A stretch of DNA of 46,669 nt, from the sequence record SRR20825010_3322; one strand, given 5' to 3'. Numbering within the stretch: position 1 is the stretch's first letter; each line of letters starts with the position of its first letter. The notes below the pieces were generated by a model that was given only the letters and a program-made list of their open reading frames with translations, had not been told where the DNA came from and did not search any database. Made by a program: the position numbers and the translations under genes. Shown piece after piece: positions 7,470 through 35,549 of this stretch.

Positions 7470-8009
7470 CTATTCTAGACTGCCTGCCTGGGCCGGGGCT
7501 TCCGTGTTCAACGCAAACCTGTTTTCTTCGAGGAAGCGTGTGGCGGCCTGCTGCATTGTAATACCATACTGGAGCACAAAGCGGGCGGCATCGCCTTCTT
7601 CATTCTCAAGCAAAGCTTGTAGAAGCGCGATCTGTTTATGGTGATGGGTGATCCTGTCGCTGATCAGCACATCAATGCGGCTTGGGGCAACAGCCTCGGC
7701 AAAAAGAAGAGCCGCAAGGAACTCAGACCTGTTCTTGTCTGGCTTGGGAGAATGCGCCAGCGCCGTCTCCAGCGTGGTGCGGCCTTCAGCCGTCAAGCTG
7801 TAGACCTTGCGGTCTGGCCTGCTTTCCTGCGCCTCGGTGCGGCAATTCACCAGGCCTTCTTCGGTGAGCTTCGTCAGGGCAGGGTAGATGGAGCCATAGC
7901 TGGCTTCGGAGAAGAAGCTGAAAGCGCCTTCTGCAACCATCTTCTTGATGTCGTAGCCGGTGGTGTCGCCCAGGCTGAGAATGCCGAGGCACAGGGTGCG
8001 GATATCCAT
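7470..8009 (-). CDS. PadR/AphA family transcriptional regulator
   Basis: TGYDIKK..SYGSIYPALxKL..RKVYSLTxEGR winged helix. Confidence 0.93.
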   Translation of the reverse strand: MDIRTLCLGILSLGDTTGYDIKKMVAEGAFSFFSEASYGSIYPALTKLTEEGLVNCRTEAQESRPDRKVYSLTAEGRTTLETALAHSPKPDKNRSEFLAALLFAEAVAPSRIDVLISDRITHHHKQIALLQALLENEEGDAARFVLQYGITMQQAATRFLEENRFALNTEAPAQAGSLE

Positions 8010-8045: not shown

Positions 8046-8212
8046 TCAGTTGGGGAATTTCGCTCGAAAGTAAAGATGCAGGGGATAAAAAATTGCGCAT
8101 ATGTTGGCATCCTAATTGCTTATACGATTGCAGATAATGTGGCGCCAAGCCTTCGGAGTGCGATATTTCTCCGTGTTTTTAGGTGGTTGGCCGACATACG
8201 AAAGGTTTGATC

Positions 8213-9049
8213 ATGATTGCCGCACGTTTAAAAATGGGTTCGTTTCTGGCACATGGGGCAAAACTTGCCTGTGCAGCGCTTGTATTGGGGGGCTGTCAGT
8301 CCAGCAACCTCTGGCAGGGTGAAGAAGTTTTGGTTGAGGCGCGCCAGACCACGCTGGAACGCAGTGTTGGCTCGGTGAATGAAAACCACCGGGAACTGAA
8401 AGACCGCTTTAATGCGCTCGAGCGCCTTTATGTGGATTTGGTTCGCGGTTTGCGCACCCAGAGCGACCAACTCAAGGCGATAGAGCAGCAACTTGCCAAT
8501 TTCCAGAAAGACCCTGAACTGGCGGCAAGCCTGACAAGGGTGAAAAACGACCTTGGCGCTATGCGCAAGGACATGAAGACACTTGAGAACAGAGTGTATT
8601 CCGTTGAGGTAATGGACCGTCAGGCGGCGGCTTTCACGCCAAAAACTGATACTGCGCCCACGGGCACATCCCAAACGGGTGCTGATCCGGAACCTGCGGC
8701 CAACGCTGGTGCCGCCGCAGCAACGCCGGTGGATAACCGCCCTGCGATGCGCAGCCAGACATTTTATGGTGCACATTTGGCGTCTTACCGGTCGCAGGAT
8801 CAGGTGGCATCCGGCTGGCGCAGTCTCTTTAATGCCTTCTCAAATCAGCTCCAGGGGCTTGAGCCTCGTGTTTACACACAGAGCCAGGAGGGTATTGGTA
8901 CGTTCCTTCGCCTTATTGTTGGCCCGATGGAGAACGAAGGGCAGGCAGCAGCCCTTTGTGACAGTATTCGTGCCACCGGAGGTGAACAATACTGCAGGGT
9001 ATCTGAATACCAAGGCGAACCGCTGCCTGAGCCAGCACCGGCAGAATAA
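8213..9049 (+). CDS. Lipoprotein with coiled coil and C-terminal SPOR domain
   Basis: Lipobox LGGC; heptad-rich middle; YGAHLASY..W..L..RLIVGP..A..LC..C SPOR-like C-terminus. Confidence 0.8.
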   Translation: MIAARLKMGSFLAHGAKLACAALVLGGCQSSNLWQGEEVLVEARQTTLERSVGSVNENHRELKDRFNALERLYVDLVRGLRTQSDQLKAIEQQLANFQKDPELAASLTRVKNDLGAMRKDMKTLENRVYSVEVMDRQAAAFTPKTDTAPTGTSQTGADPEPAANAGAAAATPVDNRPAMRSQTFYGAHLASYRSQDQVASGWRSLFNAFSNQLQGLEPRVYTQSQEGIGTFLRLIVGPMENEGQAAALCDSIRATGGEQYCRVSEYQGEPLPEPAPAE

Positions 9050-9066
9050 ACCTGACCAAAGTGTCA

Positions 9067-9095
9067 GAAAACAGGGCCTCCGGGCCCTTTTTTTG
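9067..9095 (+). terminator. Intrinsic terminator after the SPOR gene
   Basis: AGGGCCT-cc-GGGCCCT hairpin followed by T-tract. Confidence 0.8.
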
Positions 9096-9182
9096 TGTCT
9101 AATTGGCAAAAATTTAAATAAATAACAGCGGATGGGGAAAGCCCTCTTGACAGAGAGCGACAAATCTTGTCGGATGCTCCAA

Positions 9183-9340
9183 CCTTCGACACACTCAGTC
9201 GTAGATGATCAACTTGGGGAGGTGCGATCATCTGGGCGCCAGCAATGGCAGCCACTGAGCTACGAAGGCCGGGCATACCTGGGGGTTCGCTCGGATTAGG
9301 CGCGGTGCTACGACCCATATAGGTTGTTCGCCGCGCCTTT
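9183..9340 (+). ncRNA. Putative structured non-coding RNA (family not recognised)
   Basis: Nested helices CCUUCG/CGAAGG, CUCAGU/ACUGAG, UAGAUGAUC/GAUCAUCUG, GCCA-GCAA-UGGC, then CCGGGC/GCUCGG and AGGCGCGG/CCGCGCCU hairpins; TTGACA at 9147-9152; no credible ORF. Confidence 0.65.
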
Positions 9341-9423
9341 CGCTATCTCACCCTATCTCTCACATCCTTGTGTCAGCAATATGACAAAACATCGCAGGTG
9401 ATACCTGTGAGGTGGGCTTAACC

Positions 9424-9597
9424 TTAGAACGTGAGTTTGCGGCCAAAGGATGGCTTCACGTCAACGGCCCATGATGGCTTCCTGAGAAGAGTGCAAAGGC
9501 GTTTGAGCACAAGTGCCATGCCGTCCTGCATGGAGGCCATGCCAATCGCACCAATCATAATAAACATCATCAGAATGAAGATATGTGAAAAAGCCAT
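9424..9597 (-). CDS. 57-aa small membrane protein, putatively SOS-induced (not in ORF track)
   Basis: Manual translation MAFSHIFILMMFIMIGAIGMASMQDGMALVLKRLCTLLRKPSWAVDVKPSFGRKLTF*; RBS AGGAG 8 nt upstream; promoter and two LexA boxes upstream. Confidence 0.75.
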   Translation of the reverse strand: MAFSHIFILMMFIMIGAIGMASMQDGMALVLKRLCTLLRKPSWAVDVKPSFGRKLTF

Positions 9598-9610
9598 GTT
9601 TGCCGCTCCT

Positions 9611-9668
9611 GTTCCTTTTTTGTTCTTATAGGGGTGGTTGAGGTGCCGGTCAAGAACAAAAGTAGAAC
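9611..9668 (-). promoter_or_regulatory. Sigma70-type promoter flanked by two alphaproteobacterial LexA (SOS) boxes
   Basis: GTTC-ctttttt-GTTC (9611-9625) and GAAC-aaaagta-GAAC (9654-9668); minus-strand TTGACC (9653-9648)-N17-TATAAG (9630-9625). Confidence 0.85.
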
Positions 9669-9797
9669 ATATCGTATAAAGGTGGTTCTTCGAGGTGAGT
9701 AATTATATTGCGCTGAACTTCTGATCGGTGCTAAAGAGGAGGTAAGTGAGCGGGCATAATCCCGCGAATAAAAACAAAAATGAAAAAGAGATGAGTT

Positions 9798-11141
9798 ATG
9801 TCGCTAGACCCACGGGATCGCCCCGCAGGGGAGGCATCTGAGGGAAGTGGTCAAAACAGACCTGGCTCCAAGGAAAGTGCCTCACGCAGAAAGAGGAGAC
9901 GGCCGCGCCGCCGTGCCTCAAACCACAAGAGTGAGGTCCAAGGCACCACACCTTCGCAAACAGGCGCTTCCACCACAACAGAACAAGCTGTAGCCGATGC
10001 GGCTGTCAAGGGGCCATCACCCAGGCCCGCTCAACCGGGCGCGCGCAAGCCCAATGCTGAGCGTCAAGGCGCAGGGCCCGGCAACCGGCCGCCATTGCCG
10101 CCGGTGCGCACGGTGTATAGTGCGATCGATCTTGGCACCAATAATTGCCGGCTGCTGATCGCTCGCCCCACCCGTGGTGGTTTCCGCGTGATCGATGCCT
10201 TTTCCCGCATCGTTCGTCTGGGTGAGGGGGTATCCAACGGCAATATGCTATCGGACGCTGCGATGGACCGTACCATTGAAGCGCTGAAAGTTTGCGCAGA
10301 GAAAATCGCCCGCCGCAACGTGACCTGCATGCGCCACGTGGCGACAGAAGCCTGCCGCGTGGCCGATAACTCCGCAGAGTTTATTGCGCGCGTGAAGCGC
10401 GAAACCGGCTTGAACCTCGATGTTATCTCGGCGGGTGAAGAAGCACGCCTTGCGGTCATGGGCTGCCAGTCGCTTATCGCGCCCGGCAACAGGCATGCGC
10501 TCGTATTTGATATTGGTGGCGGTAGCACAGAGCTTATCTGGGTAAGGGTGCTGCCGGGCGGCCGCACAGAGATCAGCGGCTGGATGTCTATTCCCTGGGG
10601 GGTGGTCAACCTGTCGGAGCACTATGGTATCTCGGGCACCACGGTGCCACGGGACGAATATAATAAGATGGTCAATATTGTTGTGGATCATCTGCAAGCA
10701 TTTGAAGACGCTCACAGCGTCTCGGCCGTTGTCAAGAAGCGCCAGACCCAGTTTCTGGGCACGTCAGGTACTGTTACAACACTCGCGAGCCTGCACCTCA
10801 ATCTGCCGCGCTATATCCGCGAGAAGGTTGATGGTGCCTGGATGAAATCCAAAGATATTCATGCACTATCGCGTAGCGTGGCTGAGATGACCCATGAGGA
10901 ACGTTCTGCCCAGCCGTGTATCGGGCCTGAGCGCGCAGATCTCGTGGTAGCCGGGTGTGCCATTCTGGAGGCTATTTTGGGCATGTGGAATGTGCCGAGC
11001 CTGCGCGTCGCAGACCGGGGCATACGCGAAGGCATTTTGCGTGGTATGATGCAGTTAGAGAATATGCCGGTACGACAAGGACCGCGCCGCCGCGGGAGAA
11101 ACCCCGGGGGCAGACCAAATAAGGTGAAGACGCATGGCTAA
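9798..11141 (+). CDS. Ppx/GppA family phosphatase with long basic disordered N-terminus
   Basis: AIDLGTNNCRLL, VATEACR, EEARLA, DIGGGSTE, GTSGTVT, RADLVVAG, GIREG. Confidence 0.93.
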   Translation: MSLDPRDRPAGEASEGSGQNRPGSKESASRRKRRRPRRRASNHKSEVQGTTPSQTGASTTTEQAVADAAVKGPSPRPAQPGARKPNAERQGAGPGNRPPLPPVRTVYSAIDLGTNNCRLLIARPTRGGFRVIDAFSRIVRLGEGVSNGNMLSDAAMDRTIEALKVCAEKIARRNVTCMRHVATEACRVADNSAEFIARVKRETGLNLDVISAGEEARLAVMGCQSLIAPGNRHALVFDIGGGSTELIWVRVLPGGRTEISGWMSIPWGVVNLSEHYGISGTTVPRDEYNKMVNIVVDHLQAFEDAHSVSAVVKKRQTQFLGTSGTVTTLASLHLNLPRYIREKVDGAWMKSKDIHALSRSVAEMTHEERSAQPCIGPERADLVVAGCAILEAILGMWNVPSLRVADRGIREGILRGMMQLENMPVRQGPRRRGRNPGGRPNKVKTHG

Positions 11142-29496: not shown

Positions 29497-32358
29497 TTAT
29501 TCCGCCGCCTGACGTTTCAGCACAGGAGCAAGATAATGCCCTGTGTAGCTTCGTGGTTCCTTGGCAACATCCTCGGGCGTGCCGGTGGCGACAATCTCGC
29601 CGCCGCCATCGCCACCTTCGGGGCCGAGGTCCAAAATCCAGTCTGCGGTTTTGATAACCTCCAGGTTATGTTCGATCACCACTACCGTATTTCCTTGATC
29701 CACCAGTGCTTGCAGCACTTCCATCAGCTTGCGTACATCCTCGAAGTGCAGGCCCGTGGTGGGTTCATCAAGGATATAGAGCGTCTTGCCGGTTGAGCGC
29801 TTTGACAGCTCTTTGGCCAGTTTCACCCGCTGGGCTTCACCGCCTGAAAGGGTAGTGGCCTGCTGGCCCACGCGGATATAACTCAGGCCAACCTTATCCA
29901 GCATTTCAAGCTTGTTGCGGATAGCAGGCACAGCCTTGAAAAAGTCAACGCCTTCCTCAACTGTCATATCAAGAACATCAGATATCGATTTGTCTTTAAA
30001 GCGAATTTCTAGAGTTTCACGATTGTATCGCTTGCCTTTGCACTGGTCACACTGCACATAAACATCCGGCAGGAAGTGCATCTCGATCTTGATCATGCCG
30101 TCGCCTTTACAGGCTTCGCAGCGCCCCCCCTTCACGTTGAAAGAGAAACGACCGGGCTTGTACCCGCGCGCCAATGCCTCTGGCAGACCCGCAAACCAAT
30201 CCCTGATCGGTCCGAACGCACCGGTATAGGTGGCAGGGTTTGAGCGCGGCGTACGCCCAATGGGGCTTTGGTCGATATCAACAATCTTGTCGAGATGCTC
30301 CAACCCTTCAATCGCCTCATGGGCGCCGGGGTTTACACGCCCACCGTTCAGGTGTTTTGCGACCGCCTTATAAAGCGTTTCAATCGTGAAGGTGGATTTA
30401 CCCGAGCCAGACACGCCCGTGATGCACGTCAATGTACCAAGTGGGATTGAGCCGGTCACATCCTTCAGGTTGTTGGCACTTGCACCTTTAACGGTAAGGA
30501 ATTTCTTCTTGTGGCCTTTGCGGCGGGTTGCGGGCAGGGGAACGGTGCGTTTGCCGGTAAGATACTGGCCGGTGAGGCTCTCGTTTGAGGCCATGATGTC
30601 CTGCGGCGTACCTTCCGCCACGATAGCGCCGCCGTGTTCGCCAGCACCTGGGCCCATATCAATCACATAATCCGCGCTCAGGATGGCGTCCTCGTCATGC
30701 TCAACCACCAGAACGGTGTTGCCGATATCGCGAAGGTTCTTGAGCGTTTCAAGCAGGCGGTCGTTATCGCGCTGGTGCAAACCGATGGACGGTTCGTCCA
30801 GCACGTAAAGTACGCCGGTAAGGCCAGAGCCGATTTGGGACGCCAGGCGAATACGCTGGCTTTCACCACCAGAAAGTGTTCCAGATGAACGGCTTAAGGT
30901 TAGATAATTAAGTCCTACATTAACAAGAAATCCCAGGCGTTCCTGAATCTCTCGCAATACTTTGTCGGCGATCTGCTGCTGTTTTTCGCTCAGGTGTGAC
31001 GGCAGTTCGGTAAACCAGTCATAGGCACCTTTCACCGAAAGGCTGGTCACTTCACTAACATGCTGGCCAGCGATTTTGACCGCGAGGGCTTCCGGCTTTA
31101 ACCGCGCGCCCTCACATGCCGTGCAGGTGGTTGATGCCTGATATTTGGAAAGTTCATCCCGCATCCAGTTGCTGTCGGTCTCGCGCCAGCGACGCTCAAT
31201 GTTTTTCAGCACGCCTTCAAAGGGTTTATTGACCTCAAATTTTCGCTTGCCGTCCGCATAGGTGATGGTCACGGGTTTATTGCCGGTGCCGTACAGGAAA
31301 GCCTGCTGCGCTGCCTCTGATACCTTTTCCCACGGTGTGTCGATCGAGACTTTAAAATGCCTGGCCACAGCCTCCAGCGCCTGAAAATAGAAGGGAGACG
31401 GGTTGTTTGCTTTATTGGCCCACGGCGCAAGCGCACCTTCGCGGATGGTCTTCTTGGTGTCCGGCACCGCGAGGTCCGGGTCAAAATAAAGCTTTTTGCC
31501 AAGCCCGTCACAGGTTGGGCACGCTCCAAACGGGTTGTTGAAGGAAAACAGCCGGGGTTCGATCTCTTCAATCGTGAAGCCGGAAACCGGACAGGCGAAC
31601 TTGGCGGACATCAAATGTCGTTCACCACCTTCGTCACCAGCGGCTGCGATCTCCACAGCCACAAGGCCGTCTGCAAGTTCTAGTGCGGTTTCAACGCTGT
31701 CGGCAAGGCGTTGCTCCAAGCCTTCCTTGAGCACAAGGCGGTCCACCACCACGTCGATATCGTGTTTGTATTTTTTGTCGAGCGTGGGGGCTTCTTCAAT
31801 GAGGTAAAATTCACCGTCCACCTTCACGCGCTGGAAACCGCGCTTTTGCAGCTCAGCCAGCTCCTTGCGGTATTCCCCTTTACGGCCGCGCACGATGGGC
31901 GCCATAAGGTAGAGACGGGTGCCGTCACCCATCGCCATGATGCGGTCTACCATCTGGCTCACGGTCTGGCTTTCAATGGGCAGGCCGGTGGCGGGCGAGT
32001 AGGGCACACCCACGCGCGCCCACAATAGCCGCATATAGTCGTAAATCTCGGTCACTGTGCCCACGGTGGAACGCGGGTTTTTGCTGGTTGTTTTCTGCTC
32101 GATGGAGATCGCAGGCGAAAGGCCTTCAATATGATCCACATCAGGCTTTTGCATCAGCTCCAGAAACTGGCGGGCATAAGCGCTCAGGCTCTCAACGTAG
32201 CGGCGCTGCCCCTCCGCATAGATGGTATCGAACGCGAGCGACGACTTGCCCGAGCCTGAAAGTCCGGTAATCACCACAAGCTTGTCGCGCGGGATATCAA
32301 CATTAACAGACTTCAGGTTATGTTCCCTGGCGCCGCGGACGGATATTTCTGTGAGCAT
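29497..32358 (-). CDS. uvrA: Excinuclease ABC subunit A
   Basis: GAREHNLK, two Walker A ([16 protein letters not shown]), LSGGE signatures, zinc fingers. Confidence 0.99.
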
Positions 32359-32470: not shown

Positions 32471-32485
32471 GAACAAATAAAGAAC
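32471..32485. promoter_or_regulatory. LexA (SOS) box in the uvrA/GFA divergent promoter
   Basis: GAAC-aaataaa-GAAC; back-to-back TTGACA hexamers at 32444-32439 (-) and 32450-32455 (+). Confidence 0.85.
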
Positions 32486-34190: not shown

Positions 34191-34721
34191 TTATTTTTTG
34201 ACGTATAGCCCGTCAAACCAGGGCTGCCATTCGCTTGTCTCCGTATTCATTTGCTCAAAAAACTGACGAACGCTGCCGTCTTCATTCGGGGTCCATGTAC
34301 CCCGGAAGGCCACGGCTTGATTGCTGGCATAATACCAGATGGTGCCTTCAAGCACCATGGAGCCGTCTTTAAGTCCGCCTTCGATATCAATGGCATAGGC
34401 ACCGCCGGATACCCAAAGCTGTCGCCATTTTCCGGTGACAGGGTTATAATAATTCACGCTCTTGCCGGTGCTGCCACCTGTACCGTTCCATTCTTCAAGG
34501 AGCGCACATTCGCCTTCAATTTTGGAGATGGAGTTTTCTCCGGCATATTGGCCGTTCTGACGACCGCTGACTTTCCAGTCCCCTACCCAAAAGTCGAAGG
34601 CCTTGAAGGCGGGGTCTGTTTTACAAGGGGAGGGTGGGGGCGTCTGTGCCTGCTGTGCCGCGATGGCTGTGCTGCTGAATGCAATGAACAAGCCGACGGC
34701 GGCTGTCTTTAGAAGCTTCAT
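34191..34721 (-). CDS. Secreted hypothetical beta-barrel protein
   Basis: Signal peptide; FDFWVGDW, G.C...E.W, G.S.NYY....WRQ.W, VRQ.FE, W..WFDG.Y. Confidence 0.8.
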   Translation of the reverse strand: MKLLKTAAVGLFIAFSSTAIAAQQAQTPPPSPCKTDPAFKAFDFWVGDWKVSGRQNGQYAGENSISKIEGECALLEEWNGTGGSTGKSVNYYNPVTGKWRQLWVSGGAYAIDIEGGLKDGSMVLEGTIWYYASNQAVAFRGTWTPNEDGSVRQFFEQMNTETSEWQPWFDGLYVKK

Positions 34722-34883: not shown

Positions 34884-34898
34884 GAACATAACATGAAC
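34884..34898. promoter_or_regulatory. LexA (SOS) box upstream of ssb
   Basis: GAAC-ataacat-GAAC. Confidence 0.8.
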
Positions 34899-35024
34899 AA
34901 ATGATTTGTTTCTGCCTTCGGGCTAAATAGGTTTGAAGCGTTTGCAACCATGGTCTATGGTCGCCGACACAAAGGTGTCATGTATGAGTTGCGGCACCGA
35001 TACGAGATAAAGAAGGGGGCTTTA

Positions 35025-35549
35025 ATGGCCGGTAGTGTGAATAAGGTAATTTTGGTGGGCAACCTTGGGCGTGACCCTGAGGTACGGACGATGAACGATG
35101 GCTCACCCGTGGTGAATTTATCGCTTGCGACGTCTGAGACATGGCGGGACCGCGCATCAGGCGAACGCCGCGAGCGGACCGAATGGCACCGCGTGGTTAT
35201 CTTCAACGAAAACCTGGCGAAAGTTGCACAGCAGTACCTGAAAAAAGGTTCGACCATTTACATTGAAGGCCAGCTTCAAACTCGTAAGTGGACAGACCAA
35301 CAAGGTGTTGAGAAATACTCCACCGAAGTTGTTCTGCAGCGGTTCCGTGGTGAGCTGACGATGCTTGGTGGTCGCGGCGATAGCCAGGGCGGCGGTTTTG
35401 GTGAAAGCAGCCAGTCCAGCTATGGCGGTGATTTTGGCGGCAGCTCGCAAGGTGGTAGCCAGGGCGGCAATCAAGGTGGCGGCCAAGGCGGAAATCAGGG
35501 CGGCGGCTTTGGTGGCGGCGGTGATCTGGACGATGAAATTCCGTTCTGA
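35025..35549 (+). CDS. ssb: Single-stranded DNA-binding protein
   Basis: [26 protein letters not shown], Gly-rich linker, DDEIPF tail. Confidence 0.99.

Follow-up and report, generated by a model that had tools for sequence, protein, structure and literature searches.

Two LexA boxes, a small membrane protein gene and a conserved structured RNA in Kordiimonas: probably independent convergent neighbours

The stretch of DNA considered here (the window, 46,669 nucleotides (nt) of sequence record SRR20825010_3322) carries between positions 9147 and 9668 a structured small RNA (sRNA) on the plus strand and, facing it on the minus strand, a gene for a hydrophobic protein of 57 amino acids (aa) with two LexA boxes at its promoter. 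An earlier sequence-only reading had proposed that the two form a new type I toxin-antitoxin-like or SOS checkpoint module. Our results suggest that they are probably two independent convergent neighbours, namely an SOS peptide gene, for whose product a block of the divisome is the preferred function, and a separate sRNA. The region belongs to a Kordiimonas chromosome and is 100 % identical over its length to L001 (NZ_OZ244153.1, a metagenome-assembled genome (MAG) of Kordiimonas sp.), which was compared with the loci L002 to L005 of four other Kordiimonas-type genomes, L003 being Kordiimonas gwangyangensis DSM 19435, a cultivable type strain. These loci were recovered by a genome scan with an 8-sequence alignment and the pattern [IVF]GMA[SA]MQD, which misses members of the peptide family such as P0010, P0013 and P0016; all five are syntenic. 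The RNA and the small open reading frame (ORF) lie in a conserved stretch of housekeeping genes with the order psd, pssA, PadR, SPOR, RNA, small ORF, ppx, rlmE, guaB, and the order of the seven flanking genes is common to all five loci according to tblastn, except that PadR is missing in L004 and that L005 is cut at a contig end.

The peptide gene and its control region consist of the following elements.

9424..9597, minus strand: gene for the 57-aa small membrane protein (ORF list, family, codon pattern and AlphaFold2)
9606..9609, minus strand: Shine-Dalgarno sequence GGAG, 8 nt 5′ of the ATG, kept in 5/5 loci
9611..9625, plus strand: proximal LexA box, GAACAAAAAAGGAAC on the gene's strand, with perfect core tetranucleotides in 5/5 loci
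9625..9630, minus strand: putative -10 hexamer TATAAG, assigned by its sequence
9648..9653, minus strand: -35 hexamer TTGACC, 17 nt from the -10 hexamer, TTGAC being invariant in 5/5 loci
9654..9668, minus strand: distal LexA box GTTCTACTTTTGTTC, adjoining the -35 hexamer, with a perfect core in 5/5 loci

The protein is recognised by its conserved N-terminal motif FSHIxxLxxFIxIGxxGMASMQDG, and its C-terminal tail is basic and variable. Among 15 aligned family sequences His5, Phe12, Gly16, Gly19, Gln24 and Gly26 are invariant, the signature GMA(S/A)(M/L)QDG follows directly C-terminal of the hydrophobic stretch, and the last 20 residues vary. An exhaustive profile search among 1.84 billion proteins returned 14 representatives at E <= 1e-3, and 12 of them are 54-62 aa long. 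Ten of those twelve were taken into alignment A2, with P0003 and P0004 as the other two rows from the profile search; P0012 (480 aa, E 5.5e-4) and P0015 (125 aa, E 8e-4), which are long, weak and partial matches, were left out. A second search with A2 recognised 28 family proteins among 439 candidates. Eight of the 28 carry a name, and all eight come from Kordiimonas species or from a Kordiimonadaceae MAG and are annotated as 'hypothetical' or 'uncharacterized' proteins; the other 20 are unnamed. The differences at codon positions 1/2/3 number 11/2/13 against L002, 15/7/25 against L003, 18/9/19 against L004 and 14/8/19 against L005, that is, they are fewest at position 2, and therefore the pattern is that expected of a translated gene. 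AlphaFold2 run on A2 predicts one helix comprising residues 2-38, followed by a low-confidence tail (mean pLDDT 76.6, pTM 0.42). In Pfam at E <= 1 the only match of the protein is a chance-level one to IntS14_C, with no type I toxin family among the matches, NCBIfam gave only weak matches to transmembrane-helix families, and PHROGs, PADLOC and PDB returned nothing meaningful. Judged by its family and its codon pattern, the small ORF is a real and conserved gene for a predicted small membrane protein, most likely a lineage-specific SOS-induced membrane peptide of the Kordiimonadaceae.

The upstream DNA of the gene reads, on its own strand, GTTCTACTTTTGTTC, TTGACC, 17 nt, TATAAG, AACAAAAAAGGAAC and then AGGAGCGGCAAAC before the ATG, and its two hexamers make a good promoter of the sigma-70 type. 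The proximal LexA box has the opposite orientation to the distal box and begins at the last base of the -10 hexamer; being placed directly after it, the box therefore covers the likely transcription start. The spacing between the two boxes is exactly 43 bp in 5/5 loci, and the equivalents of the -10 hexamer in the other four loci are TATAAG, TATAAG, an ATAGAA-type and an ATAAAA-type sequence. The 17-nt promoter spacer differs freely among the five loci while the boxes, TTGAC, the -10 and GGAG are kept, which is a phylogenetic footprint. GTTC-N7-GTTC occurs five times in the window against 1.19 matches expected, and at least five matches were seen in only 1 of 100 shuffles. Apart from the pair at the peptide promoter, two of the matches stand upstream of genes.

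32471-32485: GTTC-N7-GTTC box, 113 nt upstream of uvrA (29497..32358, minus strand)
34884-34898: GTTC-N7-GTTC box, 52 nt upstream of ssb (34950..35549, plus strand)

Both uvrA and ssb are classic SOS genes. The presence of the motif upstream of them therefore indicates that GTTC-N7-GTTC behaves as the LexA box of the host, and GTTCN7GTTC is cited as the SOS box of Caulobacter in PMC6237742. The sequence-only reading had placed the hydrophobic ORF on the minus strand under LexA control, and the two boxes at 9611-9625 and 9654-9668 bear this out as far as control can be read from sequence. Control of the peptide gene by LexA (SOS) is thus supported, with LexA binding and induction presumed. No earlier description of Kordiimonas together with LexA was found within the literature collection searched. 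The box at 34884-34898 also faces a divergent ORF of 176 aa (34191..34721, minus strand) with no Pfam match, which may be another SOS gene, and the fifth match, at 35331-35345 inside the coding region of ssb, is probably due to chance.

On the opposite strand, the RNA and the sequences at its two ends are arranged as follows.

9149..9154, plus strand: TTGACA within the invariant block CTTGACAG, a candidate for the -35 hexamer of the sRNA promoter, invariant in 5/5 sequences
9170..9343, plus strand: structured small RNA of ~165-170 nt with a three-way-junction 5′ domain (fold, conservation and covariance model)
9171..9179, plus strand: block GTCGGATGC, invariant in 5/5 sequences, possibly an unusual -10 region or the 5′ end of the RNA
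9298..9345, plus strand: 3′ hairpin of the sRNA (10 + 6 pairs) with a stem invariant in 5/5 sequences, then the short U tract UUUCGCU; presumed terminator

Folding of positions 9175-9350 on the plus strand gave -79.7 kcal/mol, whereas shuffled sequences had a mean of -59.82 with a standard deviation of 4.11 (z = -4.84), and none of 200 shuffles reached the native energy; the minus strand of the same segment gave z = -4.00. Of all DNA in the region that of the RNA is conserved best, with identities of 96.4 % in L002, 85.4 % in L005, 85.4 % in L003 and 78.8 % in L004. The DNA of the ORF is 79.3 % identical in L002 and aligns only in pieces of 50-72 nt in L003-L005, and the whole 1-kb region shows 82.5 % identity with L002 and, in the other loci, 67.6-78.8 % over the pieces that align. 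The structured RNA which the sequence-only reading had noticed on the plus strand is thus upheld both by its folding energy and by its conservation in four other loci. The consensus structure of the five sequences (RNAalifold) has 54 pairs, 3 of them with compensatory double changes, and it consists of a closing stem, a three-way junction, a G-rich invariant loop UUGGGGAGGUG, a second invariant hairpin with the loop CUGGGGGUU and the long 3′ hairpin. Judged by this consensus, the plus strand has canonical pairs in 256 of 266 pair cells (27 of them G-U) and the minus strand in 233 of 266.

Searches with a covariance model of the RNA detected a single full-length copy in the window and a single one in every locus (164.8-206.5 bits), with no second copy in the 103,503 bases scanned. 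Rfam release 15 gave 0 matches at the gathering score over the whole window; at E <= 10 there were 6 matches within 8950-9850, none of them overlapping 9147-9345, and BLAST of the RNA against plasmids gave no match. Two other accounts of this segment were rejected. As a coding region it would have to rely on the overlapping ORFs (55 aa on the plus strand, 84 aa on the minus strand), which have no Pfam match, and the indels between species are not multiples of three; transcription from the minus strand, with C-rich loops, would turn the 27 G-U pair cells into A-C mismatches.

Upstream of the RNA the blocks CTTGACAG and GTCGGATGC are invariant in 5/5 sequences and the other DNA is not conserved. 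It is plausible from this invariance that TTGACA is the -35 hexamer of an sRNA promoter. TCGGAT is located 17 nt downstream of TTGACA and is a poor match as a -10 hexamer; therefore the promoter type and the start site of the sRNA are uncertain, and because of this non-canonical -10 the promoter scan reported no full sigma-70 match in the upstream region. No LexA box (GTTC-N7-GTTC) is present at the RNA promoter. The T run behind the 3′ hairpin of the sRNA is too short for the terminator scan, which did not call this hairpin. Taken together, the RNA is most likely an orphan sRNA which, by its fold and its footprint, is real and conserved and is probably a transcription unit of its own.

Some smaller features of the RNA can be added. 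TCGGAT occurs twice in an invariant context, once in GTCGGATGC at the 5′ edge (9171-9179) and once in CTCGGATTAGG before the 3′ hairpin (9292-9298), and there are three GGA motifs if GGGGAGG of the first loop is counted. Binding of a protein at the GGA motifs or the TCGGAT copies is a possibility, and the readings of the RNA as a CsrA sponge and as a riboswitch, suggested by the GGA motifs and the three-way junction, were considered.

Two further elements are located in the gap that separates the RNA from the ORF.

9371..9386, no strand assigned: inverted repeat TGTCA-N6-TGACA, kept in L002 only and absent in L003-L005
9395..9407, minus strand: hairpin CAGGU-AUC-ACCUG resembling a terminator, then CGAUGUUUUG, located 17 nt past the stop codon of the ORF (terminator scan)

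From the base of the RNA 3′ hairpin to the stop codon of the ORF there are 86 nt, and 80-115 nt in the other loci, which agrees with the distance of ~85 bp and the facing orientation reported by the sequence-only reading; RNA (plus strand) and ORF (minus strand) are convergent, and their gene bodies do not overlap. The hairpin GCAGGT-GAT-ACCTGT noted by the same reading is indeed present at 9394-9408. Within it the terminator scan made a call on the minus strand at 9407..9395, with 5 pairs and then CGATGTTTTG, and therefore the hairpin reads as the terminator of the ORF itself. A hairpin follows shortly after the stop codon in 5/5 loci, each time with a different sequence, and it is followed by a U tract in L001, L002 and, at a greater distance, L003. 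Less can be made of TGTCA-N6-TGACA, which was also pointed out: it is present, but its conservation ends with L002. One match was found against 0.04 expected and at least one in 4 of 100 shuffles, the pattern having been chosen after it was seen, and the repeat is probably a second small hairpin of the ORF 3′ untranslated region (UTR) or a product of chance. Beyond L002 the gap gave no BLAST alignment, and apart from the post-stop hairpin its sequence is unconserved.

A possible link between RNA and peptide gene was examined through base pairing. Folding the full-length molecules together produced only meaningless whole-molecule duplexes of positive net energy, and the pairing was instead scanned in 24-nt windows moved in steps of 4, with opening energies added to those from duplexfold; this windowed scan is a home-made approximation and not IntaRNA. 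The best pairing predicted in the window, -6.7 kcal/mol, joins the RNA loop UACCUGGGGGUUCGCUC to the 3′ UTR, and it is not above chance, as the same energy was reached by 13 of 50 dinucleotide shuffles of the L001 mRNA (mean -5.6, standard deviation 1.9, minimum -10.9). The best pairings in L002, L003, L004 and L005 amount to -7.9, -7.1, -2.7 and -3.9 kcal/mol, each formed by other segments of the RNA and of the mRNA. No stretch of the RNA with extended complementarity to the peptide mRNA was found by the windowed scan in the five loci, which agrees with the inspection by eye in the sequence-only reading. With no pairing above the shuffles, no conserved pairing site and no overlap of the genes, the comparison of the five loci leaves a type I toxin-antitoxin-like or checkpoint module of RNA and peptide not supported. 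The co-occurrence that had been suggested as a check was found, RNA and ORF being adjacent in 5/5 loci, but it carries little weight: the five loci share their gene order, and therefore the co-occurrence says nothing beyond synteny. The alternative which that reading had itself left standing, that of independent neighbours, is the better one, in view of the separate hairpins, the unconserved gap and the pairing at chance level.

SOS-induced small membrane proteins serve many bacteria to halt division or to become dormant once their DNA is damaged, and each lineage has seemingly invented a protein of its own, as SulA, YneA, SidA and TisB illustrate. What could the peptide gene do as an independent unit? 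In undamaged cells LexA would occupy both GTTC-N7-GTTC operators, the one adjoining the -35 hexamer and the one over the likely start, and the 43-bp spacing, about four helical turns, would bring both sites onto one face of the DNA. After DNA damage, LexA cleavage stimulated by RecA would free the promoter TTGACC-17-TATAAG, and a leader of presumably about 20-25 nt with the GGAG site would allow translation of the 57-aa protein. According to the positive-inside rule, with seven Lys/Arg residues after the helix, the protein would be inserted into the inner membrane with the N-terminus out and the C-terminus in. The invariant residues at both ends of the helix (His5, Gly16, Gly19, Gln24 and Gly26) could recognise a specific membrane partner. 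The function we prefer is a block of the late divisome that can be reversed, like that exerted by SidA in Caulobacter, and a TisB-like drain of the membrane potential would be the second choice. Transcription of the peptide gene would stop at the hairpin about 17-45 nt past the stop codon. The sRNA would form a separate unit of ~165-170 nt with its own upstream TTGACA, its own 3′ hairpin and no LexA box. We infer the membrane topology, the function as a division inhibitor and the transcript ends of both units; the sequences, their conservation, the positions of the motifs, the fold statistics and the lack of pairing are observations.

The nearest functional parallel is SidA, a 29-aa SOS-induced inner-membrane protein of Caulobacter crescentus which binds FtsW and blocks division (PMC4211646). 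SidA and the present peptide (the latter by prediction) are both small single-pass inner-membrane proteins of Alphaproteobacteria with a GTTC-N7-GTTC SOS box and without a dedicated RNA partner (PMC4211646 and PMC6237742). However, the peptide is 57 aa long instead of 29 aa, its family is confined among named members to the Kordiimonadaceae, and two operators bracket its promoter.

Several observations weigh against independent neighbours with a division inhibitor. The look-alike search of the peptide in the ESM Atlas did not rise above the noise range (scores 0.79-0.81), and the conserved juxtamembrane motif would also suit self-association in a pore. The pairing scan is approximate, with shuffles made for L001 only, and the adjacency of RNA and peptide gene in 5/5 loci fits a link, although it has little weight in a syntenic neighbourhood. 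Finally, only UUU follows the 3′ hairpin of the RNA, and the post-stop hairpins of L004 and L005 have no U tract; therefore it is plausible that transcription runs on from either side and thereby gives an antisense overlap.

The explanation that survives best beside independent neighbours with a divisome block also leaves the sRNA unrelated. The peptide would be a stand-alone SOS-induced depolarising or pore-forming peptide under LexA control only and would promote dormancy, which we consider rather unlikely. The model consists of a single long helix, within which Gly16 and Gly19 are invariant, and the polar residues His5, Gln24 and Asp/Glu25 flank it, so that helix-helix packing in an oligomer is possible. 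Moreover, the two operators suggest very tight repression, as expected of a harmful product. On the other hand, the protein shows no homology to known toxin families in Pfam, NCBIfam, PHROGs, PADLOC or PDB, and the strongly conserved juxtamembrane motif could just as well serve a specific partner. In addition, the SOS-induced small membrane protein that sets the precedent in Alphaproteobacteria inhibits division (PMC4211646).

Cis-antisense action or transcriptional interference would require that incomplete termination of the sRNA carries transcription into the peptide gene, or that SOS-induced peptide transcription crosses the sRNA gene, with the one damping the other. The convergent layout with gaps of only 80-115 nt in 5/5 loci is in line with this, and so are the weak U tract UUUCGCU after the sRNA hairpin, compared with TTTTTTGTGT after the strong terminator of the SPOR gene, and the post-ORF hairpins of L004 and L005. 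However, each transcript has a separate hairpin in every locus, the sequence of the gap drifts freely and synteny alone explains the adjacency; furthermore, the RNA is far better conserved (79-96 %) than the DNA of the ORF and is therefore unlike a member of a co-evolving antisense pair. In the convergent type I pairs of Bacillus (txpA/RatA, bsrG/SR4) the 3′ ends overlap by about 100 nt or more. Their peptide and RNA genes are convergent as here, but the genes in Kordiimonas are 86 nt apart with a hairpin each, and overlap would need read-through. We consider such interference improbable, and equally so the broader idea that the RNA and the LexA-box peptide gene would be a Kordiimonadaceae-specific convergent regulatory pair acting through leaky termination, antisense either way.

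A type I pair is defined by an RNA with extended complementarity or overlap, and the antitoxin RNAs of tisB/istR-1 and dinQ/agrB are complementary to the toxin mRNA over ~20 nt or more. No such stretch was found here by the windowed scan, the layout is convergent instead of divergent, the leader is short, and the RNA is multi-branched, about 170 nt long and better conserved than the peptide gene; the likeness to these Escherichia coli systems consists in a LexA-repressed small hydrophobic peptide next to a separately transcribed small RNA. A membrane toxin whose translation is blocked by an sRNA pairing in trans until SOS induction outruns it is very improbable: the peptide is small and hydrophobic (57 aa), with LexA boxes at its promoter and, adjoining its gene in 5/5 loci, an sRNA that has its own promoter without a LexA box, which agrees with the definition by a protein of <60 aa and an sRNA repressing its translation (PMC11264685) and with the LexA-repressed tisB, blocked by IstR1 (PMC13159721), but 13 of 50 shuffles pair as well, no pairing site is common to the five species, the leader of presumably about 20-25 nt differs from the long structured 5′ UTR given as typical of tisB in PMC7708055, the RNA is highly structured and conserved to a far higher degree than the peptide gene, the locus is present as a single copy within a syntenic core region, and no type I toxin family appears in Pfam at E <= 1.

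If true, the convergent regulatory pair would join a new SOS-induced membrane peptide, be it a division inhibitor or a toxin, with a structured RNA that is likewise new and would be a type I-like module without homology to any described one. Neither the peptide nor the RNA changes a paradigm. Nevertheless, the locus provides a phylogenetically footprinted SOS-peptide candidate for the Kordiimonadales, a 57-aa protein with a doubly operated LexA promoter that is annotated only as 'hypothetical protein', and it brings to light a structured RNA, strongly conserved and with G-rich loops, that matches no family of Rfam. The lack of support for pairing leaves the toxin-antitoxin model without sequence backing, and effort on that model can be saved.

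The elements flanking the RNA and the peptide gene are the following.

8183..9049, plus strand: gene for a SPOR-domain protein (Pfam SPOR)
9073-9088, plus strand: strong terminator of the SPOR gene (terminator scan), then TTTTTTGTGT
9798..11141, plus strand: ppx (Pfam Ppx-GppA)

SPOR proteins usually act at the division septum. The one encoded here has a lipoprotein-like N-terminus (…LVLGGC…) and a coiled-coil-like central region. Its gene is an intriguing neighbour for a candidate division inhibitor, yet the predicted periplasmic part of the peptide comprises only ~4 residues. The PadR-family regulator is encoded at 7470-8009 (minus strand), with pssA and the SPOR gene on either side; it occurs in L001, L002, L003 and L005, with no match in L004. 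In the ppx product the Ppx/GppA domain begins only at residue 121 (window positions 9798-10160 encode the N-terminus), and the first ~100 residues form an extension rich in Arg, Pro and Ser (RRKRRRPRRR...) that is probably disordered. In L003 and L004 the match covers only 348-353 of the 447 residues and leaves this extension unaligned. Upstream of ppx, positions 9727-9774 form a conserved block (88 % over 26 nt in L003, 75 % over 48 nt in L005), which may be the promoter or the leader of ppx.

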